A DNA stretch of 64,000 bases from Escherichia coli (GTDB lineage Bacteria; Pseudomonadota; Gammaproteobacteria; Enterobacterales; Enterobacteriaceae). A program made the translations under genes and the position numbers. Position 1 is the first letter of the stretch; each line of letters starts with the position of its first letter. Where the stretch lies: NCBI RefSeq assembly GCF_002854065.1, contig NZ_CP024147.1. The stretch is one strand, 5' to 3'. The notes under the pieces were generated by a model that did no database searches, was not told the origin of the DNA, and saw nothing but the letters and a program-made list of their open reading frames with translations. This document shows positions 21,577-44,221 of this stretch, in pieces.

Positions 21577-22041
21577 TTAGTGATGTTTTGGCTGCACCGC
21601 AACATACATTTCGATATCCCAGTACCCATCTTCCGCGCCATTGTTCAAATAAACCTCGAAGCAGGGCTTTGGTAACATTTCATAAGCACTGTCCTGCAAG
21701 AGGCTATTAAAGAACTGATACCAGGGTTTAGCAAAATCATCACCGACTACACGAGCCACCGCCACCGCATACTGACCACCTGAAATTTCTGTCAGAATGA
21801 CGCCCTCACTGTTTTCGGGAAGCGTAAAGTTATTCGGTACCGTCACAACGGTGTCGCAGCGTAATTTTTCGGCGGGTCTTTCATCTGGATTGTCGTAATA
21901 GACAGCAACCCACTCAATATTTTTGTTATCTACCCACATCATCAACTGCTCAAAGCCTTTCTTTACCGTCTGTTCCCACGGGCCAACGAGATGGAAACCT
22001 GCAACGGTACGTTTCTCTTCCTGCTTAATCTCGTAGTTCAT
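21577..22041 (-). CDS. sbmC: DNA gyrase inhibitor SbmC (GyrI)
   Basis: 154-aa [27 protein letters not shown]... Confidence 0.85.
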
Positions 22042-23534: not shown

Positions 23535-23588
23535 ATGATGAATGACGGTAAGCAACAATCTACCTTTTTGTTTCACGATTACGCGCAA
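23535..23588 (+). pseudogene. sbcB: Orphaned native 5' end of sbcB (MMNDGKQQSTFLFHDY...) left at prophage attL; reads into phage DNA and stops after 17 codons
   Basis: Sequence atgatgaatgacggtaagcaacaatctacctttttgtttcacgattacg; shares the 13-bp core tttcacgattacg with the start of intact sbcB at 38811-38823. Confidence 0.7.
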
Positions 23589-24081: not shown

Positions 24082-25152
24082 TCAGGCCTCTTTGCCCTTC
24101 TCTATCGCTGAGGGCTTGTCAGGAAGCAATGCGCTTATACGTCCCTTAAGGTACTTGTACATTCTGACGTCGATGAATGCTGCGTATAAATACGCTAGCA
24201 CTATCGAGACAGCAATCATTTTTACCGCCCCCATAAATGGATCTCCCTCAACAATACCGGTAATCATCACAGGGAAATGGAGAAGGTACAGAGGGAAGCT
24301 GATAAACCCTAAAAACTGGACTGGTGCAGAGTAAAGGAACCGTTTAACCAGGGACTCATCATTCATGTAATCGACAGTTAGCAGGGGAAGAAATGCCACC
24401 ATGTAGAAATAATCCATCCTGTTGGTATGCGAAGGTTGAGCATAGAGCCCGGCAAAGCATACAAACAGACACATAGCCAAAAAAACATTCTTTTGAGGTA
24501 GTTTAGTGAAACTCTCGTACCATTTTAATTTTATGATCGAGTACATACCCGATCCCATCAAAAGACATGATGATGCAAAAACAAAATTGTACATCCCGAA
24601 AAGCTCTGGACTACCGAGCCCTCTGGCAGAAACAACAGCCAGATAAATAAATGCCAAAATAGAAATACATAACCTTGAAAGCGGCCCCATTCTCAAGAAC
24701 AGAACTGGAATCAACATGGACGCCCAAAATTCTATGCTGACACTCCACGAAGGTTCATTTATCAAATTGAATGATAATGGGGTAGACCCATGTATAAATG
24801 CTAAATTCGCTACCCATGTCCTGATACTAAATACGTAATCACCTGGCACATAACCACCATTAAGGCTATTTACGTAGTAAATGATTACCATTATCACTGA
24901 TGATATAAAGGTAAGAGGCCACAGTCTTGCCAGTCTATTCAAAAAATATGACGGGATAGACGCCCCATTTCTTACTGAGTGGGTAAGCACAAATCCCGAT
25001 ATGATGAAAAAATATGCAACAGCCAAGTGAGGGCCGTTGAATGGCCCATCATTTTTCCAACCAGTAACAGCATTGATGGCGTGATTTAGGAGCACTGCGC
25101 ATGCAAAAAGGCCGCGCAAACCATCAACAGCATAGAAGCGTTTAATTTCCAT
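24082..25152 (-). CDS. Acyltransferase family 3 membrane protein (OafA/Oac-like); candidate lysogenic-conversion O-acetyltransferase
   Basis: 356-aa multi-pass membrane ORF, N-terminal motif YAVDGLRGLFACAVLLNH typical of acyltransferase-3; AT-rich; sits at prophage end after the tail fibre gene; hairpin terminator 24057-24076. Confidence 0.7.
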   Translation of the reverse strand: MEIKRFYAVDGLRGLFACAVLLNHAINAVTGWKNDGPFNGPHLAVAYFFIISGFVLTHSVRNGASIPSYFLNRLARLWPLTFISSVIMVIIYYVNSLNGGYVPGDYVFSIRTWVANLAFIHGSTPLSFNLINEPSWSVSIEFWASMLIPVLFLRMGPLSRLCISILAFIYLAVVSARGLGSPELFGMYNFVFASSCLLMGSGMYSIIKLKWYESFTKLPQKNVFLAMCLFVCFAGLYAQPSHTNRMDYFYMVAFLPLLTVDYMNDESLVKRFLYSAPVQFLGFISFPLYLLHFPVMITGIVEGDPFMGAVKMIAVSIVLAYLYAAFIDVRMYKYLKGRISALLPDKPSAIEKGKEA

Positions 25153-25271: not shown

Positions 25272-25460
25272 TTACTCGCTTGACTCAGGATCGGTGAATA
25301 CTCCATCTTCATAAATCCATCCAATTCTGCATGGTATTCCGTCTATTTTAACAACCTGATAATCATCAAAAATATGCCCCTCACCATCCCATATAACAAT
25401 ATTTACAACTATTCCATCTGTAATTAATGCATATCTCATGCAAACTCCTCCACAAGACAA
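25272..25460 (-). CDS. Small hypothetical phage protein downstream of tail fibre gene (possible tail-fibre assembly remnant)
   Basis: 62-aa ORF only; position where a tail-fibre chaperone is expected. Confidence 0.3.
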
Positions 25461-26362
25461 ATACCATCAGCACCTTCACCACCATAAAAACGCGTGGAGA
25501 AGACCTGCGTGTCATATGCGCCAGCGCCGCCACCGCCAGGGACTAATGCTTTCGCAATTCTCGGTGAATATACAGTACACTGCCCCGCTCTTCGGCTGCC
25601 ACCCCAAAAGCTTGAACCGCCGTACCCATTAAGGAACCTAGTATTATTTTGGCCATCTCCGCCATCTCCGCCGGCTAGATTTACATCACCACCAGACCCG
25701 GCAACTCCAACGCCGCCTGATGCATATACAGTGGAAGCAGTGGACGGGTTTCCGCCTGTGGCAACCATCCCACTAAATGTTGAGTTACCGCCTTTTGTTG
25801 CCTCAGTTCCGCCAGCACCGATAACCACGGCAAAGTTTGTGATGTCAGCAATATTGAACCATTTGATACCTGTAGCGCCTGCAGCCCCCCCAGCACCGGA
25901 AAAGTTATCGGTTGGGGAACCACTATTAAAAGCGCCACCTCCGCCACCACCCCCTCCCGTTAGAGTTACTTTGATGCGCTTCGTCAGCGGGTTTAGCGTT
26001 ACTGTTTTTGATGAGGTGATCCACTGCTCGGCAATCTTCCTACCTACGTATCCGTTGGTATCTCCCAAATCAAGGTTTGCGAGAGCCGTTTTCACCGTGC
26101 CATCCGATTTGATATCGCCAAACGGATTCTTGCGGCTTAACAGCAGAGCACGAAGCGCGGTAAGCAACTGGTCGTGCCGCGCCTTCTCCAGACTGGCACC
26201 AGATGCCTCAACAACGCTACAAAGTTCTTCCTGCAACATGTCAAAGTAGTCATCATCCAGATCGGTGGCAGGCGTGCCAGTCTGGGGGTTACCACGGGTA
26301 AAACCGTTCTTACCCGCGCCGAACTTATCCTTCTGCGCGGTTTTCGTGTCTATACGATGCAT
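25436..26362 (-). CDS. Phage tail fibre protein, glycine-rich
   Basis: 308-aa ORF with poly-Gly/GGxGG repeats and conserved tail-fibre N-terminus; follows baseplate genes. Confidence 0.65.
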
Positions 26363-26365
26363 GGA

Positions 26366-26950
26366 TTACTCCGGATATTTAAAAATTACGTAGGTATGCG
26401 ACGGGCAGAGTTTGTTAAGCACACACTCGACAACGGTGTCGCCCCAGATACGCAGTGCGGAATCACAGGGATCGCCACATGTCATCCAGGTGGTGTTGGT
26501 GGTGGTTGGCATGTTGACATGCCAGTAATACCGCCATTCCGGCGCATTCACCGCGTCAGTACAGGCCGATGAGCAGGTGAACGTGCTTTTGTCGTATCGC
26601 GTGATGGTGGCATCTGGTCTGCCCAGGGCAGCAAGCTGTGCAAGATAAAAATCCTCGTTGATGCCGCCCGCCAGGTTAACCTTCGCATCCAGCCGTTGCT
26701 GACGCTGGCGAAGGGTCTGCGTTCCCGCCGGAATACATTCATCCGGCAGACCGCACAGACGCTCCCAGCGGTTTATCAGTTCAGTGGTGGTGCGCGGATC
26801 CAGCTCCCGCATCAGGGCATCCGCACGCTGATGAACACGGGTTAATGACGGTGCCGCACCGGCAATCGCCGGATCGCTGGCTGACCACGCCGGACCGGGC
26901 GGCAACAGTGCCGATAACAGGCGGATGTAATCATCGTTTGTCACGTCCAT
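26366..26950 (-). CDS. Phage tail protein (Mu gp48 / YmfQ-like, DUF2313)
   Basis: 194-aa ORF in tail module between baseplate J and tail fibre. Confidence 0.5.
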
Positions 26951-27999
26951 GAAATCGTCCCCAGTACCGCCAGTTCGTTTTTCGCAATGGAGATATTGTC
27001 CACCGGTGCAAGCAACTGATGGCTGTATTCCCCGTTCGCACCGGAAATCGCCTCACTGATACGCGACACCTTCAGTTCTCCCTGCGGATAACCATCACGC
27101 AGCAGGAACGAACGCAACTCCGCGGTGATGGCAGCCCGTATTTCCGGTGTATCCGGCGTCACGCGGATATGAAAATCCACCGTATGTGCCACCGGCCTGA
27201 ACACATACAAGTCAGAACCTGCCACCGGGGCCAGTGGCCCGATATGTTGTATTGCCGCCGTTTCCGTTGATTCTTCCGGAATGGGATTAATCAGGTCACT
27301 GCTGGCAATCATCACACCGACAGTTCCCGTTCCCATCCAGTGACGGTATGTCCATGCGCGGGTAATGCCGGGCACTTCTTTAGCCCAGACGACATAGTCC
27401 CCGTCAGCCCCGCCCTGCGGCGTCCAGTAATACCGCTCAATGACGCGGGCGCGCCACGTTTCCAGATCTTCAGTATCGAATCCGCCAGTCAGGGTATCTG
27501 CAACACCGGAAGACGGCAGACCATTCACCGGCGTGACTAGGATTAATGCCGTACCGTCGTCAGCGTTACCGACCGCGCCTGCATTTGAGCAAGTGATCGG
27601 CACACGCAGGACACCACCGGAGCTGGTTGCATCGGCAGTTGCCGTGTACTGAACCAGGTCATCGCGCTGAATCACGCTCCCGGCAGTCACCTTCAGGCCA
27701 TCGCTGACACCTTCCCAGCGCATATACCCGCTGGCAGCCGTGGCCCCCTTGCGCGGACACCGTTTCATCGCAGCATGTCGCGCCAGCCAGGACTCATCGC
27801 ACAGGTCAGGCAGCATATTCATTGCCAGATAATCGATGTACCCGTAGACCGTATGCAGCGCCGCCGCATACACCTTTGCCCGCACGTCTTCATCCATGCG
27901 CCGGAGCGTGTTGCTGACGTCCAGCCTGGCGAATAAATCGTTACGGAGCATACTGATATTTTCTGCCAGCGTCGGGCGCTGAAATTCACTGTCCGCCAT
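26941..27999 (-). CDS. Baseplate J-like protein (Mu gp47-like)
   Basis: 352-aa ORF, position and size in Mu-like baseplate module. Confidence 0.55.
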
Positions 28000-28414
28000 G
28001 CGTTATCGCACTCCACAGATCATCAAAAGAAATCATTACCGGTCCGTCACGACGCCAGAGAGTGATACTGTTACCCAGTTCATTAATCCCGGTACGGCGG
28101 ATATCCAGATCAATACGGGACACCACGCCGTCATCAATCATCCATTGCAGGCATTCGCGGATATATCCCCTTACCGTCTGCACCAGCTGATTGGTCAGTT
28201 TGCTGCGCTGAAGCAGCCACAGTCGGGAGCCGTAACGGTCATTCTGTACCGCAGGCCAGGTATCCCCCCACCATCCCATCGGGACGTCGGCGTTGTCATC
28301 AGGCTCCGCCCGCCGCCAGGTAAACAGGGAAATCACCACGGCGCGGGTCAGCGGATCCAGCGGTGCGCTGGCGCAGGTGCGTTTACCGTTCACCGTCAGC
28401 CACAGTTCCATCAT
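27986..28414 (-). CDS. Phage baseplate protein (Mu gp46-like)
   Basis: 142-aa ORF overlapping neighbours, as in Mu-like baseplate operons. Confidence 0.5.
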   Translation of the reverse strand: MMELWLTVNGKRTCASAPLDPLTRAVVISLFTWRRAEPDDNADVPMGWWGDTWPAVQNDRYGSRLWLLQRSKLTNQLVQTVRGYIRECLQWMIDDGVVSRIDLDIRRTGINELGNSITLWRRDGPVMISFDDLWSAITHGGQ

Positions 28415-28959
28415 GCCTCCATCGCTTTATCAGGTTTGTCGGTGTTACTGCCCTGACCGTTCTCTCTGTGACGATGCCCGTTATAGGCAAGCCGCATCGC
28501 TGACATGGTGGTGCCGCCGGAGTCGCACAGGTCTTTCACCTGTCCGGTCACTTCCAGGTCCATTTCAAAACGTGCTTTAGGTGAATTGCGAAACGTGATC
28601 GTTTTACCTGCACCGTCCACCACGATCCCCTCCCGGGTCAGCGTCACGGACTGCCCCTGATCGTCATAGACAGCCACCTCACCCGTCTGCAGCCCTTTCA
28701 GGCGGTAGCGCCGGTCCGACACCGTAACAACCACCGCATGAGAACGGTCGCCATCCGGAAACAACACCACCGCTTCCGCACCGCTGTTTGCCCTTGCGGT
28801 AAAACCGTAGGGTTCAAGATGTTCAACCCCGGCTTTGGGTTCACCGGCAATCAGGGACACATCCACGGTCTGACATTTCGTGGCGGCACTGATGCTTTTC
28901 ACCACGGCCCGCCCAATCAGGCCGAGGAGTTGTCGCTGCATGGCTTCAATCGTCCTCAT
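28411..28959 (-). CDS. Baseplate assembly protein V / spike (Mu gp45-like)
   Basis: 182-aa ORF; position in module. Confidence 0.5.
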   Translation of the reverse strand: MRTIEAMQRQLLGLIGRAVVKSISAATKCQTVDVSLIAGEPKAGVEHLEPYGFTARANSGAEAVVLFPDGDRSHAVVVTVSDRRYRLKGLQTGEVAVYDDQGQSVTLTREGIVVDGAGKTITFRNSPKARFEMDLEVTGQVKDLCDSGGTTMSAMRLAYNGHRHRENGQGSNTDKPDKAMEA

Positions 28960-30038
28960 CAGAACGGGTCCTCCTGTACTCTGGCTTTTTTCTTTTTCCG
29001 CGCGCCGGGGGCTTCGGGTTCAGGCAGATAAGCATCAGGTGGGCCGACACGGATTTCCGTCAGGGTGCCGTTCTGGTCCTGAGTAAACGTGACTTCCGAA
29101 ACAAGCAGTTCGGTATTGTCGAAACCACAGACCGGATCAAAGACAATCACCCGCTGGTTGGGCTGCCACAGCGTACCGTTACACTGTCGCCAGCCCTGCA
29201 CCACATAGGTGGTTTCATCCGTCCGCGCCGCCCGTTGTCTGGCTTCAAAGTCCGCACGGGCAATACAGCCTGCCCCCGTAGCCTGCCCTGTCTGCCTGAT
29301 ATACATCGGACGGTAACGGGCAATAAATGCGTCCTCTGTGCGGGCCCGCAGCGCGGTGGTGGTGGCCTCACCGAAATCATCGTCGTTTCCGGCACGCTGC
29401 CCCGCCACCTGGTAAACAGAAAACCGCTCCCGGATACTCTTCTCCGTATCGCAGGAAAGGATGTTTTCCCCGAGTACCAGCGCAGTATGTGCCCGAGTTG
29501 AGCCAATACCGCCAATCACCAGCCTGCCGTGCGGGTCGTCGTAAGCCAGTGCCTGCTGCTGACCGAGTATTTTGTTGATTACCTCAATCACCGTTTCACC
29601 GTGATCAGGCTGAACATCAGGAATAACACCCGACGGCGCACCGCTGTTCACCACCTCAATGCCGAAAGGCGCAGCAAGCGCCTGCGCAATCTGCACCAGC
29701 GAGCGTCCGTTAAACTGTGTCGGTTCGGCTGCACAGTCAATCAGGTCAGCCGTCAGACTACGTCCGACAATACCGGTGCTGACCGAACGGGAATCGTAAC
29801 GAACGGGCGTCGCCTCCACCCAGCCGGTGATCACCAGCTCATCACCAATCAGCACTTCCACTTTTGAACCGTTTTTAATGCGCGGCTGAAGCGTGGTGAT
29901 ACCCTCATCTCCCGGCCACTGGCGGGTGATCTCCACACTGAAATCCCGCGCCAGCCGTTCAATACCGGCACCGATGCGCACCGATGTCCAGCCATTCCAC
30001 TCCCGGCCATTTACCCGTAGCGTGACATTGTCGTTCAT
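28959..30038 (-). CDS. Phage tail protein (Mu gp44 / P2 gpD-like)
   Basis: 359-aa ORF; position between DNA-circulation and baseplate genes. Confidence 0.5.
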   Translation of the reverse strand: MNDNVTLRVNGREWNGWTSVRIGAGIERLARDFSVEITRQWPGDEGITTLQPRIKNGSKVEVLIGDELVITGWVEATPVRYDSRSVSTGIVGRSLTADLIDCAAEPTQFNGRSLVQIAQALAAPFGIEVVNSGAPSGVIPDVQPDHGETVIEVINKILGQQQALAYDDPHGRLVIGGIGSTRAHTALVLGENILSCDTEKSIRERFSVYQVAGQRAGNDDDFGEATTTALRARTEDAFIARYRPMYIRQTGQATGAGCIARADFEARQRAARTDETTYVVQGWRQCNGTLWQPNQRVIVFDPVCGFDNTELLVSEVTFTQDQNGTLTEIRVGPPDAYLPEPEAPGARKKKKARVQEDPF

Positions 30039-31375
30039 TGCACTGGCACCTTCAGAGGGATCACCGGCACAAAGCCGGGATGCGTAATGGCATTACGCCG
30101 GATAATGTCCGCGTCACGCGCCGCGTTATCAAACCAGGTCGCCGCCAGCACCAGCGCGGGTAAAACCTCATCCGGTGTGCGCTGAATGATCCGTGCAGAC
30201 TGTTCAAGGCGCGTGTTGATATCCGCATTCAGATCTGCTTTCACCCGGCGCAGCGCCAGAAACAGCGCATCACTGGTTGTACGGGACAACTCCTTATCAA
30301 TTGCCGTATTCAGTGTGTCGCGAATGTCAGTCAGTTCTTCCCACGTCGGCAGGTCAACCGTGTTTTTCACCGCCGGTGCATTGTTCAGTGCCGGATGCGT
30401 GACGGAAGGCCAGCCAGTGCTCTGCGCGGGTGTTGTTGCCTGCCCCACTGCGGCATTCTGCATCACCGCGGAAGTTGTTGGCGCAGGCAATCGGGTGACG
30501 GCATACGCCGCTTCGCTGATTGCGGTCGTACGAAGGGTGCTGGCAACCACGTTACGCTGCTGCGTCGCCGTGGCGGTGGTTTTACTGTCCGTTTTCCAGA
30601 CGCCGCGCGGTTGCAGATCGCTGCCGAGGCTGACACCGGAAAGCGTTTTGATCATGGTGACCAGGTCGCTGGCGTTACCATAAAGGCGTTTCCCGGTACG
30701 CCACATTTTCTGCACCTGCTCAACGAAATTTTTGCCTGACGATGGCGGCGGCAGAAGTACCGAGATATCCCCCTGCAACAGCCTGGCGGCATCCGATACG
30801 GCAGAATCCACCACTTTCATCGCATCAGAAACATACCCCAGCATTATGCTGGCATTACCGATAACGTCGTTCTGCACGAAATCCGCAACACCATCGATAC
30901 TGAAACCGCTGAAGCTGTCACTGATGCAGTCATCCAGTGCAGAACAGGATGACATCAGCGTCTGCGCCGTCGCCGCACCTGATGTGGGGTAAGAGAGTTC
31001 TCCTGCTTCGACAAACTTCAGGTCAAAGCGGACAATACGCCCTTCACTTTTCGATGTGCTGACCCGAACTTCCCCGTCAACACAGACTTTCAGCTCACCA
31101 TATGTCGGGTGGACAAGCGTGCCTGGACCGGGTTTATTCAGCGCGTCAATCAGGCGATCGCGCTGGTCAAAGCAGTCATCTCCCACCACATAAGCTGTGA
31201 TGGACGGGCGGAAAGTGATTTTCCCCAGGTCTTCGGTATAGGGTTTGTCGCGGTTTGGGTATTCATGCGTTTCAACCCGACGTCCTACCGGGGCCCCTTC
31301 ATCTTCTACCTTGAACGGAACGCCGCGAAACGACGCTTCAACCAGTCTGTCTTTCCACGCCATTGTCTGCACCAA
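30035..31375 (-). CDS. Phage DNA circulation protein (Mu gp43 / N-like)
   Basis: 446-aa ORF; the expected upstream tape-measure/sheath/head genes are missing, replaced by IS1. Confidence 0.5.
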   Translation of the reverse strand: MVQTMAWKDRLVEASFRGVPFKVEDEGAPVGRRVETHEYPNRDKPYTEDLGKITFRPSITAYVVGDDCFDQRDRLIDALNKPGPGTLVHPTYGELKVCVDGEVRVSTSKSEGRIVRFDLKFVEAGELSYPTSGAATAQTLMSSCSALDDCISDSFSGFSIDGVADFVQNDVIGNASIMLGYVSDAMKVVDSAVSDAARLLQGDISVLLPPPSSGKNFVEQVQKMWRTGKRLYGNASDLVTMIKTLSGVSLGSDLQPRGVWKTDSKTTATATQQRNVVASTLRTTAISEAAYAVTRLPAPTTSAVMQNAAVGQATTPAQSTGWPSVTHPALNNAPAVKNTVDLPTWEELTDIRDTLNTAIDKELSRTTSDALFLALRRVKADLNADINTRLEQSARIIQRTPDEVLPALVLAATWFDNAARDADIIRRNAITHPGFVPVIPLKVPVQ

Positions 31376-31534
31376 TATGATTTGTTATAAGCTACTCTGT
31401 TTCAGACGCTTCTTTCGAAGCGCCAGAGAACATTTACCTTTAAGGAGAGGTATAAATGGAAATGTTTTTGCCGTTAATACTGGGTTTGTTGCTAGCCGTT
31501 TTCATAGGACGGTGGGCTTGGTAATGACTCCAAC

Positions 31535-32038
31535 TTATTGATAGTGTTTTATGTTCAGATAATGCCCGATGACTTTGTCATGCAGCTCCACCGATTTTGA
31601 GAACGACAGCGACTTCCGTCCCAGCCGTGCCAGGTGCTGCCTCAGATTCAGGTTATGCCGCTCAATTCGCTGCGTATATCGCTTGCTGATTACGTGCAGC
31701 TTTCCCTTCAGGCGGGATTCATACAGCGGCCAGCCATCCGTCATCCATATCACCACGTCAAAGGGTGACAGCAGGCTCATAAGACGCCCCAGCGTCGCCA
31801 TAGTGCGTTCACCGAATACGTGCGCAACAACCGTCTTCCGGAGCCTGTCATACGCATAAAACAGCCAGCGCTGGCGCGATTTAGCCCCGACATAGCCCCA
31901 CTGTTCGTCCATTTCCGCGCAGACGATGACGTCACTGCCCGGCTGTATGCGCGAGGTTACCGACTGCGGCCTGAGTTTTTTAAGTGACGTAAAATCGTGT
32001 TGAGGCCAACGCCCATAATGCGGGCAGTTGCCCGGCAT
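31535..32038 (-). CDS. insB: IS1 transposase InsB
   Basis: 167-aa ORF. Confidence 0.9.
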
Positions 32039-32232
32039 CCAACGCCATTCATGGCCATATCAATGATTTTCTGGTGCGTACCGGGTTGAGAAGCGGTGTA
32101 AGTGAACTGCAGTTGCCATGTTTTACGGCAGTGAGAGCAGAGATAGCGCTGATGTCCGGCGGTGCTTTTGCCGTTACGCACCACCCCGTCAGTAGCTGAA
32201 CAGGAGGGACAGCTGATAGAAACAGAAGCCAC
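31957..32232 (-). CDS. insA: IS1 InsA
   Basis: 91-aa ORF. Confidence 0.9.
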
Positions 32233-32327
32233 TGGAGCACCTCAAAAACACCATCATACACTAAATCAGTAAGTTGGCAGCATCACCCGTCAGATGAAAG
32301 AATTAATCGGTAACGAAGGAGATATTC

Positions 32328-32498
32328 ATGTCACTTGCAACCACAGTGAAGGAGAGCAAGTTACAGAGACGCATGTACACGCAGAAAGCTCTCTGGTATC
32401 GCCATAATGGCGACCGCGAAGGAATGCGGGTATGCCTTAATTTGTCCCGAGTCGAAGTATTAAATCAGCGTTATTTCCTTGGGCCGTGTCCATTCTGA
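32328..32498 (+). CDS. Small hypothetical phage protein (56 aa), not in ORF track
   Basis: ATG at 32328 preceded by GAAGGAG RBS; translated by hand MSLATTVKESKLQRRMYTQKALWYRHNGDREGMRVCLNLSRVEVLNQRYFLGPCPF; directly upstream of recombination genes. Confidence 0.4.
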   Translation: MSLATTVKESKLQRRMYTQKALWYRHNGDREGMRVCLNLSRVEVLNQRYFLGPCPF

Positions 32499-32506: not shown

Positions 32507-33214
32507 ATGGATTTGAATAAATTCGATGAGCCATTCAGCCCTGAAGATATCGAATGGCGAATACAGCAAAGCGGTAAAACACGCGATGGCAAGGTGTGGG
32601 CTATGGTGCTGGCTTATGTAACGAACCGGGCAATCATGAAACGCCTGAACGATGTTTGCGGCAAAGCAGGATGGCGCAATGAATACCGCGATATTCCCAA
32701 CAACGGCGGAGTTGAATGCGGCATATCAATCAGGATTGATTCCGAATGGGTAACCAAATGGGATGCTGCTGAAAACACGCAGGTAGAAGCCGTCAAAGGT
32801 GGTCGTTCCGGCGCAATGAAGCGCGCTGCCGTTCAATGGGGAATCGGTCGGTATCTGTATAACCTTGAGGAAGGTTTCGCACAAACATCTCTCGATAAAA
32901 AGCAGGGGTGGCACAGGGCAAAACTGAAGGATGGAACAGGATTTTACTGGCTCCCTCCATCGCTGCCGGGATGGGCAATACCAGCATCAGATAACAAACC
33001 ATCACCAGAAAATACCAACCAGAAATCTCCATCGGTTGACTGCGAACAAATCCTGAAAGACTTCAGCGATTATGCATCAACAGAAACTGACAAGAAAAAA
33101 CTCATCGAGCGTTATCAGCGTGACTGGCAATTAATGGCTGGCAACGAGGAGGCGCAGGCTAAATGCGTTCAGGTAATGAGCATCAGAGTTAACGAACTAA
33201 AACAGGCGGCATAA
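32507..33214 (+). CDS. Rad52/Rad22-type single-strand annealing protein (phage recombinase)
   Basis: 235-aa ORF immediately upstream of a phage SSB gene; sequence resembles Rad52-family phage proteins. Confidence 0.55.
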   Translation: MDLNKFDEPFSPEDIEWRIQQSGKTRDGKVWAMVLAYVTNRAIMKRLNDVCGKAGWRNEYRDIPNNGGVECGISIRIDSEWVTKWDAAENTQVEAVKGGRSGAMKRAAVQWGIGRYLYNLEEGFAQTSLDKKQGWHRAKLKDGTGFYWLPPSLPGWAIPASDNKPSPENTNQKSPSVDCEQILKDFSDYASTETDKKKLIERYQRDWQLMAGNEEAQAKCVQVMSIRVNELKQAA

Positions 33215-33721
33215 ATGGCAAGCAGAGGCGTAAATAAGGTGATTATCCTTGGTCGGGTAGGACAAGACCCGGAAGTTCGATACTCACCATCAGGAACAGC
33301 GTTCGCTAACCTGACAATAGCCACGTCAGAACAATGGCGAGATAAAAATACTGGCGAGCAAAAGGAATTGACTGAATGGCATCGTGTTGCTGTATCCGGG
33401 AAACTGGCTGAGGTCGTGGGGCAGTATGTGAAAAAAGGTGATCAGATTTATTTCGAGGGAATGCTGAGAACCAGAAAGTGGAAAGACCAGTCAGGGCAAG
33501 ACCGTTACACAACCGAGGTTCATGTCGGAATTAATGGCGTGATGCAAATGCTTGGCGGCATTGGCGACAGCAAACAACAAGCAGCCAGCAGGCAATCACA
33601 GAAGCCACAGCAGCAATCATCACCAGCACAACACAACGAACCTCCGATGGATTTTGACGACGATATACCCTTTGCACCAGTAACTCTCCCCTTCCCTCGT
33701 CACGCTATTCACGCAATTTAA
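33215..33721 (+). CDS. ssb: Single-stranded DNA-binding protein (phage SSB)
   Basis: 168-aa ORF with OB-fold N-terminus ([18 protein letters not shown]...) and acidic C-terminal tail DFDDDIPF. Confidence 0.85.
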
Positions 33722-33734: not shown

Positions 33735-34031
33735 ATGCCAGCGCCTCTGTATGGTGCGGATGACGCGCGCCGCTGTTCCGGCAATTCCGTATCGGAGGTG
33801 CTGGATAAATTCAGGAAAAACTACAACCGGATAATGTCGCTACCGCAGGAAACGAAAGAGGAAAAGGAATTTCGCCACTGTATATGGCTTGCAGAGAAAG
33901 AAGAACGCGAGCGAATTTACCAGACATCAATCCGACCATTCCGCAAAGCCACATATACCCACTTCCCTGAATATATCGACCCGCGCCTGCGTAATTACCG
34001 CTCACGCTATGGCGCTATCAGTAATGACTGA
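33735..34031 (+). CDS. Hypothetical phage protein
   Basis: 98-aa ORF in co-oriented phage early-gene string. Confidence 0.4.
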
Positions 34032-34040: not shown

Positions 34041-34205
34041 CATGAGAGGACTTGCATACAATCCCGGAATTCTTCCGGCAGAAATGATTATTCGCCAACG
34101 CGTAAAGCCAATGCCATCGAGAGAGGAATTGCTTAAGAGAAAGAGTTTCGGTTCTGTTAATGACAACAAATATCTGAATGCGATGTGGCTGAGTGGGAAG
34201 AAATG
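34041..34205 (+). CDS. Hypothetical small phage protein
   Basis: 54-aa in-frame segment from ATG 34041 within ORF 33889-34206; start uncertain. Confidence 0.3.
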
Positions 34206-34685
34206 AAACAAATGACACTAATTGAGATGGATGGATTTCTGAAAGGTAAATGCATCCCATGTGATTTAAAGGTTAACGAAACAAACGCTGAATATCTTGT
34301 GCGTAAGTTCGGTGAACTTGAATCAAAACTAGAAACGGCGTTGCGGGAGTGTAGTTCTGCTGGAATCACGATTGATAACCTTGAGGCCAAGTGCGCGAAG
34401 ATGGCTGCTGAAAATACCTCGCTTAAGCAATCTGAGAAGGAATTTAATGACTTTTGTCGTGAGGAGTTTAGCGAATGGGAAGATGATGTTACTGAAACCC
34501 CAGCCACCGATGCTTTCCTGGCTGAAGTACGGGCGCAGGGGGTAGAGATGTACGCAGATAACCTCGACAACGGAGCAGACGACGCAGAACGAGGTGGTTT
34601 TGATTATGCCGCTAAGTTTCTACGCGGTGAGGCGTCTAGTGTACGCTTGTTCGCCGACCAGCTTCGCAAAGGAGGCAACCAGTGA
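34185..34685 (+). CDS. Ead/Ea22-like phage protein (start may be ATG 34203)
   Basis: 166-aa ORF with coiled-coil/acidic features typical of lambdoid Ea22-like proteins. Confidence 0.5.
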
Positions 34686-35161
34686 GCAAGATTAACTATC
34701 AGGCACTGCGTGAGGCGGCGGAACGTGCAATTCCAGCAATGGAACGCCTGTTAATGTTGCCAGTTGATGATGATTTGTTAAGTGAACAGGAACTTAAAGA
34801 TTACGGTGTGGATATTGATGCGCTCAACGCCTTCAAATTTCTGACCGGACCAGAAACCGTGCTGGCGCTGCTGGATGAGCTGGAAAGAAAACAGCAATAC
34901 ATCAAATCCCGAGACCAGGAGAACGAGGATATTGCGCTAACGGTAGGGAAGCTGCGCGTTGAGCTGGAAGCCGCAGAGAAGCGCATTGCTGAGCTGGAGT
35001 TGCGGGAGGTTGTGCTTCCGCAATGCTATAGCATGTTGCATCGCGTCGATTTTGACGAGCCTTACCACACTGAAATGGTTTACAGGCAGCATCAGGTTCT
35101 TGAGGCACTGCACAACGCTGGAATAAACGTCACCGAAGCAGGTAAAGGAGAGGCATCATGA
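34682..35161 (+). CDS. Ead/Ea22-like phage protein
   Basis: 159-aa ORF, coiled-coil region (LRVELEAAEKRIAELELRE); overlaps neighbours by 4 nt. Confidence 0.5.
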   Translation: MSKINYQALREAAERAIPAMERLLMLPVDDDLLSEQELKDYGVDIDALNAFKFLTGPETVLALLDELERKQQYIKSRDQENEDIALTVGKLRVELEAAEKRIAELELREVVLPQCYSMLHRVDFDEPYHTEMVYRQHQVLEALHNAGINVTEAGKGEAS

Positions 35162-35670
35162 GCACTATCACAAGAGAATGGCTGCAGCAGGCTATCAACG
35201 ATTATGAAAGCGTTCGTGATGAGCTTCCTTTCGGGCTTGATGATTACCAGGGGAATATCCTGGCTGCCCTGCGTATCGCACTGGCATCGCTGGAAGCAGA
35301 GCCGGTGGCGTGGAAGGTAACATTCACGCAAATTGACCGTGAATATAACACGTTCACTGGTATGTATTCTGACAAAGCAGAAGTCGAACGGTGGGTGCGG
35401 CTGCATAAAGCATGTAATTTTCGGGCAGATATAACACCGCTTTATACCGCCAAGCCAGTGCCGGTAACTCCGGATGGTTGGATAAGCTGTAGTGAGCGAA
35501 TGCCAGAGGACGGTCAGCACGTAATTATTTTATGTGATGGCGCATTCGTTCTTTATGCGCAATATCGAGACGGAGAGTTTTTCGATATTGTCCGCAATGG
35601 TGATGAATTTTTCGAAACACAGAGTCGCAATGTAACCGACTGGATGCAACTACCAGAACCTCCCCTTTGA
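35158..35670 (+). CDS. DUF551-type phage protein
   Basis: 170-aa ORF; C-terminal region (PDGWISCSERMPEDGQHVIILCDG) resembles DUF551. Confidence 0.5.
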   Translation: MSTITREWLQQAINDYESVRDELPFGLDDYQGNILAALRIALASLEAEPVAWKVTFTQIDREYNTFTGMYSDKAEVERWVRLHKACNFRADITPLYTAKPVPVTPDGWISCSERMPEDGQHVIILCDGAFVLYAQYRDGEFFDIVRNGDEFFETQSRNVTDWMQLPEPPL

Positions 35671-35766: not shown

Positions 35767-35958
35767 ATGTCTTGTCCAAAATGCGGTTCTGGAAATATTG
35801 CAAAAGAAAAAACAATGCGTGGATGGTCTGATGATTATGTGTGCTGCGATTGCGGATACAACGACTCTAAAGACGCATTTGGAGAGCGTGGTAAAAACGA
35901 GTTTGTCAAAATTAATAAAGAACGCGAAGGCGGTGATGCTGCCAACTTACTGATTTAG
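35767..35958 (+). pseudogene. Phage zinc-ribbon protein with C-terminus altered by IS1 insertion (native end ...EREGNEKS reconstructed across the IS)
   Basis: CxxC...CxxC motif (MSCPKCGSG...YVCCDCGY); GGAGGT RBS 6 nt upstream of ATG 35767; reading frame runs into the IS1 terminal repeat. Confidence 0.55.
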
Positions 35959-35986
35959 TGTATGATGGTGTTTTTGAGGTGCTCCA

Positions 35987-36262
35987 GTGGCTTCTGTTTC
36001 TATCAGCTGTCCCTCCTGTTCAGCTACTGACGGGGTGGTGCGTAACGGCAAAAGCACTGCCGGACATCAGCGCTATCTCTGCTCTCACTGCCGTAAAACA
36101 TGGCAACTGCAGTTCACTTACACCGCTTCTCAACCCGGTACGCACCAGAAAATCATTGATATGGCCATGAATGGCGTTGGATGCCGGGCAACCGCCCGCA
36201 TTATGGGCGTTGGCCTCAACACGATTTTCCGCCATTTAAAAAACTCAGGCCGCAGTCGGTAA
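35987..36262 (+). CDS. insA: IS1 InsA
   Basis: 91-aa ORF. Confidence 0.9.
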
Positions 36263-36684
36263 CCTCGCGCATACAGCCGGGCAGTGACGTCATCGTCTGC
36301 GCGGAAATGGACGAACAGTGGGGATACGTCGGGGCTAAATCGCGCCAGCGCTGGCTGTTTTACGCGTATGACAGGCTCCGGAAGACGGTTGTTGCGCACG
36401 TATTCGGTGAACGCACTATGGCGACGCTGGGGCGTCTTATGAGCCTGCTGTCACCCTTTGACGTGGTGATATGGATGACGGATGGCTGGCCGCTGTATGA
36501 ATCCCGCCTGAAGGGAAAGCTGCACGTAATCAGCAAGCGATATACGCAGCGAATTGAGCGGCATAACCTGAATCTGAGGCAGCACTTGGCACGGCTGGGA
36601 CGGAAGTCGCTGTCGTTCTCAAAATCGGTGGAGCTGCATGACAAAGTCATCGGGCATTATCTGAACATAAAACACTATCAATAA
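36181..36684 (+). CDS. insB: IS1 transposase InsB
   Basis: 167-aa ORF. Confidence 0.9.
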
Positions 36685-36823
36685 GTTGGAGTCATTACCC
36701 GCGAAGGCAACGAAAAAAGCTAATTTATTTATTCATATATGAAAACAATGTAATAAATATTCGAATTGAAGAATTGAAAGAACACCAAGCCGCCTGATGG
36801 CGGTTTTTTATTGGAGACAAGAA

Positions 36824-37245: not shown

Positions 37246-37437
37246 ATGACCGATACCAGCCTGATTCCTGAGAAAGAAGTGATGAACAAGCTCGGTGTTT
37301 CATCACGTCAGACAATCTGGAACTATACCAAACGGCACGGATTTCCGAAGCCAGTCAGAACCCACCCCAAATCATACCTTCGTGAAGCTGTTGAAGGGTG
37401 GATTCTTAACGGTGGCGTTAATCAGAAATGCTCCTGA
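37246..37437 (+). CDS. alpA: AlpA-family phage transcriptional regulator / excisionase-like
   Basis: 63-aa ORF with HTH (VSSRQTIWNYTKRHGFPKP), convergent with and adjacent to integrase. Confidence 0.7.
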   Translation: MTDTSLIPEKEVMNKLGVSSRQTIWNYTKRHGFPKPVRTHPKSYLREAVEGWILNGGVNQKCS

Positions 37438-38596
37438 TGTGCCAGAACAATTTATCAGCGTGAAGCTCATACGCTTTGCGCTGAGCCTCTATCCAGTCGT
37501 GTTTATTGTATACGGACATTATCCCGCCAAGTTCATGACCGAGCATTCGCTCAGTAACATGAGGCTCGACATTCATCTCGGACAGACGTGTAACAAGCGT
37601 TCTTCTGAAATCGTGTGTTCGCCAGTAACCTAGATCCATCCCTCCCCTTATTCTATTTACGAATCGGTTGGCTGCAGCGATGCTGATCGGTTTGTTTATG
37701 TCTTCTCCAGGGAAAAGAACATCATTGTACGTTGTCATGGCCTTTTCGAGGAAAGGCTTAATTTGTTCGAAGATTGGACGGCGGATAACATTACCCATCT
37801 TGCTATGCTCTTTCGGTACGGTCCATACGTTTTCCAGCAGGTCAAATTCTGTCTTTTTTGCCAGCCTAAGCTCTGAGAGCCTCGCCCCCCACAGCATAAG
37901 CATCTGATGAAGTAGCTTATTTGACGTAGACGCACGGCTTCTTTCAATAGCAAGCCAAATCTTAGCCAGTTCGTGATACGACAGTACCCGATCCCCTACC
38001 TCAGCGCGGGAGCCGAAGTCCCTTGGTTGGATGCTCATAATTGCGCAACTATCTATCAACTGACGCCGCATGCACCAACTTATTGCTGATCTTAGTTGAC
38101 TTAGCACCTGCCTTGCTCGGCGTGGATTATCTCTTTCTTCTTCGGTAAGCAGGTCAACCCATTGCTTAACCGTGATAGAAGATGCCGGACGATTAGGAAA
38201 GGCGTCATGCATGCGCTTCATAACCGTTGATCGGTAAAGTGCCTGGGTCTTTTCTCTGAGAGTTGTAGAGACGTAGTTGTCGAACCAGTAGTCGAGACAC
38301 TGGGCGACCGTCATGGAGTTCTCCACCTTCTCTTCAAAATAAGTGCGTGGATCCGTTCCTGAGAAATAGAGCTTTCGCAAGTCAGCAGTGATCTGTCTGG
38401 CATCCTTCAAAGACAGGGATGGGTATCGACCAAGCCCAAGTCGATTAGGCTTGCCATGCCAGCGATAGCGGTACTGGAACTGGATGACCCCCTTCGGTGA
38501 AATTCGTACGCTGAGGCCATCGGCATCAGCCACTTCTTGTGGGCCCGAATATGGTTTACCATAAATACTACGCAGTTTTGTGTCGCTTATAGCCAT
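37418..38596 (-). CDS. int: Tyrosine-type phage integrase (P4-type, N-terminal arm-binding domain)
   Basis: 392-aa ORF with integrase catalytic region (HDFRRT...LGH...Y); adjacent to attR. Confidence 0.85.
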   Translation of the reverse strand: MAISDTKLRSIYGKPYSGPQEVADADGLSVRISPKGVIQFQYRYRWHGKPNRLGLGRYPSLSLKDARQITADLRKLYFSGTDPRTYFEEKVENSMTVAQCLDYWFDNYVSTTLREKTQALYRSTVMKRMHDAFPNRPASSITVKQWVDLLTEEERDNPRRARQVLSQLRSAISWCMRRQLIDSCAIMSIQPRDFGSRAEVGDRVLSYHELAKIWLAIERSRASTSNKLLHQMLMLWGARLSELRLAKKTEFDLLENVWTVPKEHSKMGNVIRRPIFEQIKPFLEKAMTTYNDVLFPGEDINKPISIAAANRFVNRIRGGMDLGYWRTHDFRRTLVTRLSEMNVEPHVTERMLGHELGGIMSVYNKHDWIEAQRKAYELHADKLFWHIRSISD

Positions 38597-38777: not shown

Positions 38778-40202
38778 ATGACAGACGCAGATAAACAACC
38801 TACCTTCCTCTTTCACGATTACGAAACCTTTGGCACGCACCCCGCGTTAGATCGCCCTGCACAGTTCGCAGCCATTCGCACCGATAGCGAATTCAATGTC
38901 ATCGGAGAACCCGAAGTCTTTTACTGCAAGCCCGCTGATGACTATTTACCCCAGCCAGGAGCAGTATTAATTACCGGTATTACCCCGCAGGAAGCACGGG
39001 CGAAAGGAGAAAACGAAGCCGCGTTTGCCGCCCGTATTCACTTGCTTTTTACCGTACCGAAGACCTGTATTCTGGGCTACAACAATGTGCGTTTCGACGA
39101 CGAAGTCACACGCAACATTTTTTATCGTAATTTCTACGATCCTTACGCCTGGAGCTGGCAAAACCGCAATTCGCGCTGGGATCTGCTTGACGTGATGCGC
39201 GCCTGCTATGCCCTGCGCCCGGACGGCATCAACTGGCCGGAAAACGACGACGGTCTGCCGAGCTTCCGCCTGGAACATCTCACCAAGGCCAACGGTATTG
39301 AACACAGTAACGCCCATGATGCGATGGCCGACGTTTACGCGACCATCGCCATGGCGAAGCTGGTGAAGGCCCAACAGCCAAAGCTGTTTGATTATCTGTA
39401 TGCCTACCGGGGCAAAAACAAGCTGATGACGCTGATTGACGTCCCGCAGATGAAGCCACTGGTGCATGTCTCGGGAATGTTTGGCGCCTGGCGCGGAAAC
39501 ACCAGCTGGATTGCGCCGCTGGCCTGGCATCCGGATAACCGTAATGCGGTGATCATGGTCGACCTGGCGGGCGACATCGCCCCGCTGCTCGAGCTGGATG
39601 CCGATACGCTGCGCGAGCGCCTGTATACGCCGAAGGCCGAGCTCGGCGACAGTTCGCCGGTGCCGATTAAGCTGGTGCATCTGAATAAGTGCCCGGTGCT
39701 GGCGCAGGCCAATACCCTGCGCCCAGAAGACGCTGACCGTTTAGGCATTAACCGACAGCACTGCCTGGATAACCTGAAACTGCTGCGCGATAACCCGCAG
39801 GTGCGCGAGAAGGTGGTGGCGATTTTTGCTGAAGCCGAGCCGTTTGTCGCATCGGACAACGTCGACGCCCAGCTTTATAACGGTTTCTTTAGCGACGCCG
39901 ACCGCGCGGCGATGAAAATCGTGCTGGAGACCGAGCCGCGCAATCTGCCGGCGCTGGACATTACCTTCGCCGACCCGCGTATTGAGAAGCTGCTGTTTAA
40001 CTTCCGCGCGCGCAACTTCCCCGGCACGCTGGATGAAAACGAGCAACAGCGCTGGCTGGAACACCGTCGGCAGATCTTCACCCCGGAATTTTTACAGGCC
40101 TACGCCCAGCAACTGGAGATGTTGTACGGTCAGTATGAGGGGAATAACGAGAAGCTATCGCTGCTGAAGGCGCTGTATCAGTACGTGCAGGAGATTGTTT
40201 AA
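38778..40202 (+). CDS. sbcB: Exodeoxyribonuclease I, with phage-supplied promoter and first ~11 codons (MTDADKQPTFLF...)
   Basis: 474-aa ORF with DnaQ-like exonuclease N-terminus (FLFHDYETFG); hairpin terminator 40211-40241 downstream. Confidence 0.9.
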   Translation: MTDADKQPTFLFHDYETFGTHPALDRPAQFAAIRTDSEFNVIGEPEVFYCKPADDYLPQPGAVLITGITPQEARAKGENEAAFAARIHLLFTVPKTCILGYNNVRFDDEVTRNIFYRNFYDPYAWSWQNRNSRWDLLDVMRACYALRPDGINWPENDDGLPSFRLEHLTKANGIEHSNAHDAMADVYATIAMAKLVKAQQPKLFDYLYAYRGKNKLMTLIDVPQMKPLVHVSGMFGAWRGNTSWIAPLAWHPDNRNAVIMVDLAGDIAPLLELDADTLRERLYTPKAELGDSSPVPIKLVHLNKCPVLAQANTLRPEDADRLGINRQHCLDNLKLLRDNPQVREKVVAIFAEAEPFVASDNVDAQLYNGFFSDADRAAMKIVLETEPRNLPALDITFADPRIEKLLFNFRARNFPGTLDENEQQRWLEHRRQIFTPEFLQAYAQQLEMLYGQYEGNNEKLSLLKALYQYVQEIV

Positions 40203-40255
40203 TTCAACGCAGCGACGCCGGAAAATCTTCCCGGCGTCGCTTGATGCCTGGGGCA

Positions 40256-40480
40256 TTATTTCTGTACGGTGATGGTCCACGCCGCATCGCCAGACTGCTG
40301 ATAGTCCGTGACCGTAAAGCCCTCTTCCGCCGCCCACTGCGGGATGGCTTCCGTCGCCTGAGTACAGTCGAACTCAATCACCAGCTGGTCGCCGCTGGCC
40401 AGTTCCGCCATCGCCGCCTTCGCTTCAATTAACGGGAACGGGCAAACCTGCGTGACTACGTCCAGTTTCTTCACAACCAT
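40256..40480 (-). CDS. yeeD: TusA-like sulfurtransferase
   Basis: 74-aa ORF with CPxP motif (VCPFPLIEAK). Confidence 0.85.
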   Translation of the reverse strand: MVVKKLDVVTQVCPFPLIEAKAAMAELASGDQLVIEFDCTQATEAIPQWAAEEGFTVTDYQQSGDAAWTITVQK

Positions 40481-40525
40481 TTTTTCTACTCCTTAAGCCG
40501 TTGCGGTTTTCAGTTTTGCTTTCCG

Positions 40526-41494
40526 CTACGGGCGAACATACAACATCCACGACGCGCACCACACGCCGAGAATCATAAATACCAGGCCAATCCAGCCCTG
40601 CCAGGTCATCATCGCCGTCATCACCAAACCGTTGCCGATCGAGCAGCCGCCGGCAATGCTGGCACCGAAGCCCATCAGTACGCCGCCACCCGCGCTACGC
40701 AGCGTGGTGCTGGCATCGGCAGCGCGGACGCGGAATTCACGGCTGGCTTTCGCGGCAATAAACGAACCGATAAAGATTCCCAGCACCAGGAAGACGCCCC
40801 AGTTGAGGTACTTGCTGTCACCCCCCACCAGGAACTGCAGGATATTGGCGGTCGGCGAGGTAATGCCAAGGCCAAACATACGTCCGGTGGCCTCACTCAG
40901 CGGCCAGGCCAGCAGGGCGATAAGGCCAATCAGCACGGCGGTCACAAACGGATGCCAACGCTTTTCAAACAGCAGATGCGCCAGGCCAGTGCGGCGCGGC
41001 GGCAGAGAAGCTACTTTGAGCTTTGGTTTGCTCAGCTCTTTGCGAACAAACCACAGGGTCACCGCCACCAGCAGAACGATAAGTGGCCAGACGGAGATAT
41101 TCAGGGTTTCGGCAATGCCGTTGTGAGTGGTCGTGTGTTGACCGAGGAATTTGTTAAGCCCAGCCGCGTGCGGTGAACGCATGATCGCGCTCATCACCAT
41201 ATAGGTGACCAGTGCAATCCAGCTGCCAATCAGCCCTTCCCCGGCACGATACCAGGTGCCGGTGGCGCAGCCTCCCGCATAAACGATACCGATACCAAAA
41301 ACAAATCCACCCACCACGGTGCCAAGCCACGGGAACGCGCCTGCATCGTACTGCACCAGGCCAAGCTGGATCAGGGCGAACACGCCGATACTCTGGATAC
41401 AGATAGCAATCAACAGTGCGTAAAACATGCGGTTATTTTTGGTGATATACATATCGCGAAAGCCACCCGTCAGGCAGAAACGACCGCGCTGCAT
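40526..41494 (-). pseudogene. yeeE: YeeE/YedE-family transporter, 5' end severed by IS1 (first ~14 codons lie beyond the IS at ~42283-42330)
   Basis: 322-aa membrane ORF abutting the IS1 end; minus-strand sequence after the IS encodes MIISGMICGAL..., completing the native N-terminus across the 9-bp duplication. Confidence 0.75.
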
Positions 41495-41560
41495 AACGAA
41501 TCCCAGGTGATGCTGCCAACTTACTGATTTAGTGTATGATGGTGTTTTTGAGGTGCTCCA

Positions 41561-41836
41561 GTGGCTTCTGTTTCTATCAGCTGTCCCTCCTGTTCAGCTA
41601 CTGACGGGGTGGTGCGTAACGGCAAAAGCACCGCCGGACATCAGCGCTATCTCTGCTCTCACTGCCGTAAAACATGGCAACTGCAGTTCACTTACACCGC
41701 TTCTCAACCCGGTACGCACCAGAAAATCATTGATATGGCCATGAATGGCGTTGGATGCCGGGCAACTGCCCGCATTATGGGCGTTGGCCTCAACACGATT
41801 TTACGTCACTTAAAAAACTCAGGCCGCAGTCGGTAA
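41561..41836 (+). CDS. insA: IS1 InsA
   Basis: 91-aa ORF. Confidence 0.9.
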
Positions 41837-42258
41837 CCTCGCGCATACAGCCGGGCAGTGACGTCATCGTCTGCGCGGAAATGGACGAACAGTGGGGCTA
41901 TGTCGGGGCTAAATCGCGCCAGCGCTGGCTGTTTTACGCGTATGACAGTCTCCGGAAGACGGTTGTTGCGCACGTATTCGGTGAACGCACTATGGCGACG
42001 CTGGGGCGTCTTATGAGCCTGCTGTCACCCTTTGACGTGGTGATATGGATGACGGATGGCTGGCCGCTGTATGAATCCCGCCTGAAGGGAAAGCTGCACG
42101 TAATCAGCAAGCGATATACGCAGCGAATTGAGCGGCATAACCTGAATCTGAGGCAGCACCTGGCACGGCTGGGACGGAAGTCGCTGTCGTTCTCAAAATC
42201 GGTGGAGCTGCATGACAAAGTCATCGGGCATTATCTGAACATAAAACACTATCAATAA
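41755..42258 (+). CDS. insB: IS1 transposase InsB
   Basis: 167-aa ORF (FTSLKK variant). Confidence 0.9.
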
Positions 42259-42460
42259 GTTGGAGTCATTACCCGAATCCCAGTAAAGCCCCGCAAATCA
42301 TGCCACTTATTATCATGTGCAACATAAGAATCAATTAACTCAATATTATCAGTCTTAAAATTATTCCTGACCCCGCCGGACGGCTCCAATAACCAAAAGC
42401 TCTATATTATTCCCGACGGTTATTAATATTGATTTTTTAATCACCCCACAAACTTAAGAC

Positions 42461-42490
42461 AAAAAAAACCGGAGGCCCAGACCTCCGGTT
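42461..42490 (-). terminator. Terminator downstream of plaP
   Basis: Hairpin ccggaggcccagacctccgg with A-run on plus strand (T-run on minus). Confidence 0.6.
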
Positions 42491-42515
42491 TTGCAACCAT
42501 CGTTTTTAAATTCAG

Positions 42516-43874: not shown

Positions 43875-44221
43875 GGTCAGTCTCCATTACGGCGATGGCC
43901 GGCGCAAAATTGAAAAATTGCCCCATTTTTTTTCTGTTTCCTCAGCGACAACGACTGTCGTTTTTTAAGTAAGTATCTATCCGGTACGAAGCCCGGCCTC
44001 TTTAATTTGATGGTTGTTTTGATGTAAAAAAAATAACCGACGCGGCAAGCACGTCGGTTAATCTCAATTTTTTACATTCGACATATTTTGCCCCAAACGG
44101 TAGCAAAAAGACAAGCCGCTGAGAGCATAATCAGCACGCCTTCTCGTCTAAACGACTGATAATTCAGCAACTCCCGAATCATAAATCTCATCAATAGCAC
44201 TATTTGCTAAAACAGCGGCGA

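Follow-up and report, generated by a model that had tools for sequence, protein, structure and literature searches.

The window, by which we mean the whole 64-kb stretch of Escherichia coli DNA analysed here, contains a prophage remnant located between dacD and sbcB. The remnant spans 15.2 kb between its att cores, two IS1 copies included, a size that agrees with the approximately 15 kb proposed in a previous sequence-only reading of this DNA. A 13-bp exact repeat, TTTCACGATTACG, occurs once at each end of the remnant, at positions 23571-23583 on the dacD side and 38811-38823 inside the 5' end of sbcB. Both copies coincide with the overlaps with L023, a relative whose site is empty, sbcB directly adjoining dacD, and whose identity to the window chromosome is 99.97%; from these overlaps, the ends of the element map at around 23554-23583 and 38794-38823. 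The repeat is the reverse complement of CGTAATCGTGAAA, the attP core published for phages Sf101 and 2851, both of which integrate in the 5' end of sbcB (PMC4159516), and the att signature of this type of integration is present at both ends of the remnant. The whole window contains two att cores and one integrase.

Next to the dacD-side end there is a gene for an O-antigen-type acyltransferase of 356 aa (24082-25152, minus strand), an end moron assigned to the PHROG O-acetyltransferases (E 2e-34) and containing the Pfam domain Acyl_transf_3 in relatives. This gene is frequent in E. coli-type assemblies (64 index blocks), and showed no megablast match among 50,697 phage records that included Sf101, with its oacB gene, and the Sf phages. 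It is followed, on the same strand, by a tail fibre gene (308 aa; 25436-26362), matching the PHROG tail fibre families, and by genes for three baseplate wedge proteins similar to Mu gp48 (26366-26950, phrog_203), gp47/J (26941-27999, phrog_6) and gp46 (27986-28414, phrog_180), which in relatives contain the Pfam domains Phage_Mu_Gp48, Baseplate_J and GP46, respectively. Still on the minus strand are a gene similar to Mu gp45/V (28411-28959) and a gp44-like baseplate hub gene (28959-30038), both recognised with PHROG and Pfam, and a gp43-like gene for a DNA-circularization/baseplate hub protein of 442 aa (30035-31363; phrog_184, E 7e-144). The latter is the last intact tail gene, as the sequence-only reading had held, and the PHROG and Pfam assignments show that the Mu gp43-gp48-like baseplate block of SfV-like phages is present in the window. 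The description of the prophage as Mu-like suits these tail genes and not the phage itself, which is a lambdoid phage of the SfV type with Mu-like tail genes.

After the tail genes come the first 21 codons of a 145-aa ORF (31457-31519, plus strand; WP_061350224.1 in relatives), an IS1 element, and the 3' part of a 52-aa ORF that has lost its first 13 codons (32288-32407, plus strand; WP_000010960.1 in relatives). The recombination module begins beyond this IS1, as previously proposed, starting at 32328 or, from the annealing protein gene, at 32507. It comprises, on the plus strand, a 56-aa ORF (32328-32498) and genes for a Rad52/Erf-like annealing protein (32507-33214), a single-stranded DNA-binding protein (SSB; 33215-33721) and the anti-RecBCD protein Abc2 (33735-34031), identified from PHROG and from the RefSeq annotation of relatives. 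The exact Rad52 protein of the window has no database record, owing to a private single-base variant, and look-ups were done with the protein of a 99.97%-identical relative. The early-left accessory region that follows (34042-35670, plus strand) contains DUF2737, a 160-aa ORF, an Ead/Ea22-like gene and DUF551, identified with PHROG, Pfam and the gene calls of two relatives (L021 and L038) that are 99.97-100% identical to the window over the region. The module closest to sbcB includes an excisionase-like gene (37246-37437, plus strand) and a gene for an sbcB-type tyrosine integrase of 392 aa (37418-38596, minus strand), with hits to phrog_66 and phrog_1. This xis/int region is 99.8% identical to the prophage of E. 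coli CUWW06 and matches the integrases of Sf101 and HK544, a further feature of sbcB integration. All the baseplate, acyltransferase, recombination and integrase ORFs are full-length in the window.

The IS1 separating both parts of the remnant is a complete element of 768 bp (31520-32287, minus strand) and constitutes the deletion junction. Its terminal inverted repeats, GGTGATGCTGCCAACTTACTGAT and GGTAATGACTCCAACTTATTGAT, match in 18 out of 23 positions, in agreement with the ca. 23-bp imperfect repeats of the IS1 family. It contains insA (91 aa) and insB (167 aa) and, at positions 305-313 of the element, the A6C −1 frameshift motif TTAAAAAAC that joins insA and insB', also typical of the family. 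The deduced InsB is a common IS1 variant, and copies 98.7-99.9% identical to the element in E. coli CUWW06 and 100416 are named IS1B family transposase in RefSeq. The start formerly assigned to this IS1, 31376, marks instead where the adjacent DNA-circularization ORF ends, and the true end of the IS1 is at 31520.

There are four IS1 copies in the window, the junction element being copy 2, and the other three are flanked by perfect 9-bp target duplications: AAAATCCCC for copy 1 (8635-9402), CGCGAAGGC for copy 3 (35932-36699, plus strand) and CGAATCCCA for copy 4 (41506-42273). Unlike its three sister copies, the junction IS1 lacks the target duplication expected of the family, since the 9-mers beside it, GGTGGGCTT on the left (31511-31519) and CGTCAGATG on the right (32288-32296), agree in only four of their nine positions. 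The sequence-only reading had singled it out as the only one of the four without a repeat, which is indeed the case, and no duplication appears after correcting the coordinates. We also discarded an 8- or 9-bp duplication hidden by shifted IS1 ends; a boundary shift does not yield any duplication because the flanks, each native to its own site, run unbroken into different, distant parts of intact relatives. The absence of a duplication is a signature of secondary rearrangement, and not evidence against the identity of the element as an IS1. Comparison of the four IS1 sequences was uninformative as to a mosaic pattern that would indicate recombination between IS copies; copies 2 and 4 show only two differences.

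IS1 copy 3 is a recent simple insertion in a small Lar-like gene, inside the remnant and outside the deletion event, and is absent from four relatives (L021, L024, L038 and L047) that are otherwise 99.96-100% identical to the window around that site. Copy 4 is inserted ca. 45 nt inside the 5' end of tsuA/yeeE, annotated with 351 aa in relatives, leaving an ORF of 322 aa; its InsB shows a private R-to-S change, and the copy is absent from the otherwise 99.96-100% identical L021, L023 and L038. The window also contains a full-length IS5 (18521-19715), between cobU and tmaR, whose 4-bp flanks, CTAG and CTAA, do not amount to an exact duplication, and which may mark another rearrangement. CUWW06 and 100416 also have an IS5 beside tmaR, with different DNA beyond it, and another relative (L032) has gat-operon genes at this place. 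One end of the sbmC ORF (21577-22041) shows a minor lineage-specific difference, the product having 154 aa in the window and in GCA_035821435.1 and 157 aa in the remaining relatives of the comparison. Positions 1-8600, which precede IS1 copy 1, contain a 985-aa ORF (12-2969) and several further large ORFs.

The intact prophage of E. coli CUWW06, also located at the dacD-sbcB locus, has the same gene order as the remnant with an additional interval in place. Starting from dacD, it contains the acyltransferase, fibre, baseplate and DNA-circularization genes, the 145-aa ORF, on the opposite strand, and the tape measure gene, followed by the genes for tail assembly, tube, sheath, connectors, capsid, protease, portal, terminase and lysis, and then by Q, nin, P/O, cro/cI-type regulators, kil, the recombination module, xis, int and sbcB. 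CUWW06 is 98.3% identical to the window from yeeA to position 31519, and 99.8-100% identical from 37170 onward. Its recombination module consists of Gam/Bet/Exo, in place of the Rad52/SSB/Abc2 module of the window, indicating that the early-left region is mosaic among relatives. A second intact prophage, in strain CUPS SST 5/1, occupies the same locus with the same gene order. Additionally, contig JACAHU010000009.1 (GCA_030325175.1; L030, L042) unites both window modules in one intact prophage of ca. 39 kb, with identities to the window of 98.8% for the left module and 99.2-99.96% for the right one.

The flanks of the junction IS1 are colinear, and in the same orientation, with two distant sites in these three undeleted relatives, and the equivalents of the breakpoints are 25.1 kb (CUWW06), 26.0 kb (CUPS SST 5/1) and 25.3 kb (JACAHU010000009.1) apart. 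The interval between them contains exactly the gene classes listed as absent in the sequence-only reading, which were tape measure, sheath/tube, head, lysis, replication and repressor genes, and their absence extends to the whole 64-kb window. In detail, the remnant has lost the genes for tape measure, tail assembly, tube, sheath, head-tail connectors, capsid, protease, portal and terminase, together with those for lysis, Q, nin, replication, cII/cro/cI, N, cIII and kil. Accordingly, blastn of the interval DNA from the three relatives did not retrieve any match in the window, and the sheath, tube, tape measure, HK97-type head, lysis and immunity genes of a complete SfV-like genome are all missing from it. 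At least ten intact prophages encode a DNA-circularization protein identical to that of the window, each time beside a tape-measure gene, and among the intact relatives at dacD-sbcB we found no instance of tail and recombination modules as natural neighbours.

Other relatives match each side of the junction even more closely. L029 and L031 are 99.87-99.88% identical to the window up to 31519 and go on with the 145-aa ORF and the genes for tape measure, tube and sheath, and L038, L040 and L045 are 99.9-100% identical from 32288, preceded leftward by kil, cIII, cI, cro, cII, O, DnaB and nin. Because of the mosaicism of the early-left region, the ancestor was pieced together from two near-identical halves plus one single-contig relative with 98.8-99.9% identity, and does not correspond to one 99.9%-identical genome.

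The two halves of the remnant have different affinities: the left block matches SfV, SfI, SfII and SfIV at 97%, and the right block shows patchy matches to Sf101, HK544, Stx phages and related lambdoid phages. Moreover, GC content changes sharply across the junction IS1, from 57-60% on the left to 48-49% on the right. These differences are what would be expected if two tandem sbcB prophages, an SfV-like myovirus next to dacD and a lambdoid phage of the Sf101/HK544 kind next to sbcB, had been fused. Nevertheless, we consider such a fusion very improbable: single intact prophages at this locus unite an SfV-type tail with an sbcB-type integrase, one contig carries both modules of the window within a single ca. 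39-kb prophage, and no more than two att cores and one integrase are present. Additionally, the 13.7 kb of phage DNA kept in the window plus the missing interval of around 25 kb add up to one normal phage genome of ca. 39 kb.

Both breakpoints lie within small ORFs that are uninterrupted in relatives. The left one is 156 bp past the end of the DNA-circularization gene, after codon 21 of the opposite-strand 145-aa ORF, which separates this gene from the tape-measure gene. The unbroken site reads GGACGGTGGGCTT/ATAAAAAAGAAAAG, that is, GGTGGGCTT/ATAAAAAAGAAAAG (the slash indicating the breakpoint), and belongs to an intact gene in L001, L019, L029 and L031. The right breakpoint is inside the 52-aa ORF situated just downstream of kil, between it and the Rad52-like recombinase gene, and its uninterrupted sequence is GAAGAATTCATT/CGTCAGATGAAAG; likewise, GAATTCATT/CGTCAGATG is the unbroken right site in L006, L038, L040 and L045. 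In L002, the complete 52-aa ORF occupies positions 19962-20120, and the match with the window begins at position 20001. There is no microhomology between the left and right sites, and each of the 9-mers is native to its own site.

The junctions of the window also appear in other assemblies. The left junction is present in GCA_035821435.1 (L035, 99.99% identity), which contains the right junction as well (L024); SRR23696841 (L021) and two gut metagenomes (L020 and L047) also have the right junction. IS1 copies 3 and 4 are both absent from L021 and L047, and copy 3 is also absent from L024; the junction IS1 is thus older than copies 3 and 4, because there are junction-bearing assemblies without them. 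Neither junction was detected in 5,426 complete E. coli genomes, in the GTDB species representatives or in IMG/VR, and the IS1 elements found near either module in PEC122, CE20 and 2024CK-00475 are unrelated insertions at other positions. The chromosomal flanks of the remnant are 99.8-100% identical to those of E. coli CUWW06 and 100416. As to the neighbouring chromosome, the sbcB-tsuB-tsuA-plaP region (38800-44000) is 99.8-100% identical to few E. coli, such as CUWW06 and 100416, and shows an identity of only 82-87% with several further E. coli genomes used for comparison, forming a strongly divergent allele block near the his/O-antigen region.

All the other assemblies with a junction are short-read contigs that end inside IS1, and we recovered no independent assembly that runs across the whole IS1 into both flanks, such that the linkage of both flanks through one copy rests on the assembly of the window itself. 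Contigs ending inside IS1 at both junctions would equally result if two IS1 copies, each with its own duplication and with the intact 25-kb interval between them, had been merged into one during assembly. There is very little probability of such a collapse. Four IS1 copies, each with single-base variants of its own, are told apart in the window, suggesting that its assembly is finished or based on long reads, and none of the 5,426 complete E. coli genomes has an IS1 at either of the two sites. Also absent from IMG/VR were the reciprocal junctions, in which the left end of IS1 (IRL) would be joined to GGTGGGCTTATAAAAAAG (GCAGCATCACC/GGTGGGCTTATAAAAAAG) and GAATTCATTCGTCAGATG to its right end (IRR; GAATTCATTCGTCAGATG/GGTAATGACTCC). 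Finally, look-ups with an interior 322-aa early protein, the DNA-circularization protein and the acyltransferase did not identify interval-bearing contigs from the junction-bearing samples among the 23-24 contigs listed for each protein.

IS1 insertions and deletions have occurred repeatedly in this family of prophages. For instance, E. coli 100416 (L008, NZ_CM128593.1) contains an independent IS1 without target duplication (positions 6424-7191; flanks CAACTATTC and CGAAGATTG), which joins the equivalents of window positions 25414, at the acyltransferase end of the prophage, and 37768, in a truncated integrase gene. The sbcB-side chromosome of this strain is 100% identical to the window. ET120 shows an IS-free deletion that joins the DNA-circularization gene to the nin genes. 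In turn, three IS1 positions found in different samples (the window and the relatives L033 and L034) fall in a stretch of ca. 210 bp where the 145-aa ORF begins: one at 31399/31400, in the same orientation, that of the window at 31519/31520, and one 89 bp further in, in the opposite orientation. The start region of this ORF is a local hot spot for IS1, a moron region richer in AT that is flanked by GC-rich tail genes. The IS-free deletion of ET120 and this recurrent targeting, with separate insertions in other samples at distances of 120 bp on one side and 89 bp on the other, could suggest that an IS-independent deletion occurred first and that IS1 later entered its scar, or else that a simple insertion had its duplication mutated away. 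Both are extremely unlikely: a later insertion would have created a 9-bp duplication, of which there is none, no relative with the two flanks joined without IS1 was found, and the 9-mers, each being the native sequence of a different, distant site in intact relatives, did not arise by decay from a common copy.

Together, our results support the earlier reading of a large internal deletion marked by IS1, and we consider it highly probable that the remnant derives from a phage of around 39 kb, integrated in sbcB, by an IS1-dependent loss of ca. 25 kb from its middle part that left one IS1. The ancestor would have been a temperate phage located between dacD and sbcB, with the 5' end of the latter as its integration site. 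Its genome would have been organised as in lambdoid phages, with genes for an HK97-type head and for a Mu-like contractile tail of the SfV/SfI/SfII/SfIV type, an O-acetyltransferase moron and an integrase gene of the Sf101/2851 type. Around 25 kb of its interior would then have been lost in an IS1-dependent manner, a single copy of IS1 staying at the junction. Since the genes of the interval are gone, the remnant, as judged from its gene content, is non-inducible and can neither replicate nor lyse its host nor assemble particles.

The loss might have followed two routes, both of which, intramolecular transposition and recombination between IS1 copies, are established for IS1. In the first, a resident IS1 would have undergone intramolecular replicative transposition into a second site of the same prophage, causing an adjacent deletion; in the second, RecA-dependent homologous recombination would have taken place between two IS1 copies in the same orientation, one at each site. 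Both routes predict the same a-IS1-b structure and appear to us about equally likely. Therefore, of the IS1-mediated adjacent deletion invoked in the sequence-only reading, the large internal deletion with IS1 at the junction stands, and the adjacent route is indistinguishable from inter-IS1 recombination. As no precursor with an IS1 and its target duplication at either site was found in the 5,426 complete E. coli genomes, the GTDB species representatives or IMG/VR, we infer both the direct role of IS1 in causing the loss and the route. Inversions do not account for the structure, because both flanks, as well as dacD and sbcB, keep their native orientation; an inversion or a composite transposon formed by the inverted pair of IS1 copies at 31520 and 35932 was also discarded, because relatives without the second copy are otherwise colinear.

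IS1-mediated deletions were reportedly described by Reif and Saedler in 1975 in the gal region of E. coli, and Turlan and Chandler are said to have reported replicative intramolecular IS1 rearrangements in 1995. The junction shares with the classical IS1-mediated deletions the presence of one intact IS, the lack of a target duplication, the colinear flanks and a lost segment that begins exactly at the end of the IS. It departs from them in that here we have only the end product, with no visible mechanistic difference. IS-mediated adjacent deletions are also a routine class of mutation in experimental evolution of E. coli (PMC4300727).

The element resembles two groups of known phages. Along 5.3 kb of baseplate and DNA-circularization genes, the element shows 96.7-97.3% identity to SfV, SfI, SfII and SfIV, with which it also shares a lambdoid genome, Mu-like tail genes and an O-antigen-modification gene beside att. 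These phages integrate in tRNA-thrW and carry gtr genes, whereas the element of the window contains an sbcB-type integrase and an acyltransferase, and is a deleted remnant. Most sequenced genomes of S. flexneri contain, upstream of sbcB, IS elements and remnants with Sf101-like integrases (Jakhetia et al. 2014, PMC4159516). The element is similar to these Sf101-type remnants in the sbcB site, the 13-bp att core, the type of integrase, the acyltransferase moron at the far end and the presence of IS elements breaking the prophage (PMC4159516). However, its structural module is an SfV-type Mu-like contractile tail, unlike the Sf6/P22-like podovirus module of Sf101, and at the nucleotide level its acyltransferase, with no megablast match, is not oacB.

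The three IS1 positions within ca. 210 bp, the second deletion in 100416 and the full length of the retained ORFs could suggest that the decay of these prophages is not neutral. Selection might repeatedly have favoured locked-in remnants that retain the O-antigen acetyltransferase, perhaps along with Rad52/SSB/Abc2, and that have shed lysis and immunity, the AT-rich moron being a preferred entry point for IS1; we regard this reading as rather unlikely.

The event is of an already known kind, a routine IS-driven decay of a prophage with low novelty, and its value lies in annotation and lineage marking and not in new biology. The element between dacD and sbcB should be annotated as a defective SfV-type prophage with a single IS1-bounded deletion of ca. 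25 kb, and should not be mistaken for a tailocin, a small satellite or an element consisting only of tail genes. Its exact breakpoints can be used as lineage markers, as the junction is common to several assemblies and predates two other IS1 insertions. The retained acyltransferase may continue to modify the O antigen, which, if true, would be relevant to serotyping. In all, the remnant represents one further documented case of IS1-driven prophage decay in an IS1-rich lineage of the E. coli/Shigella type.
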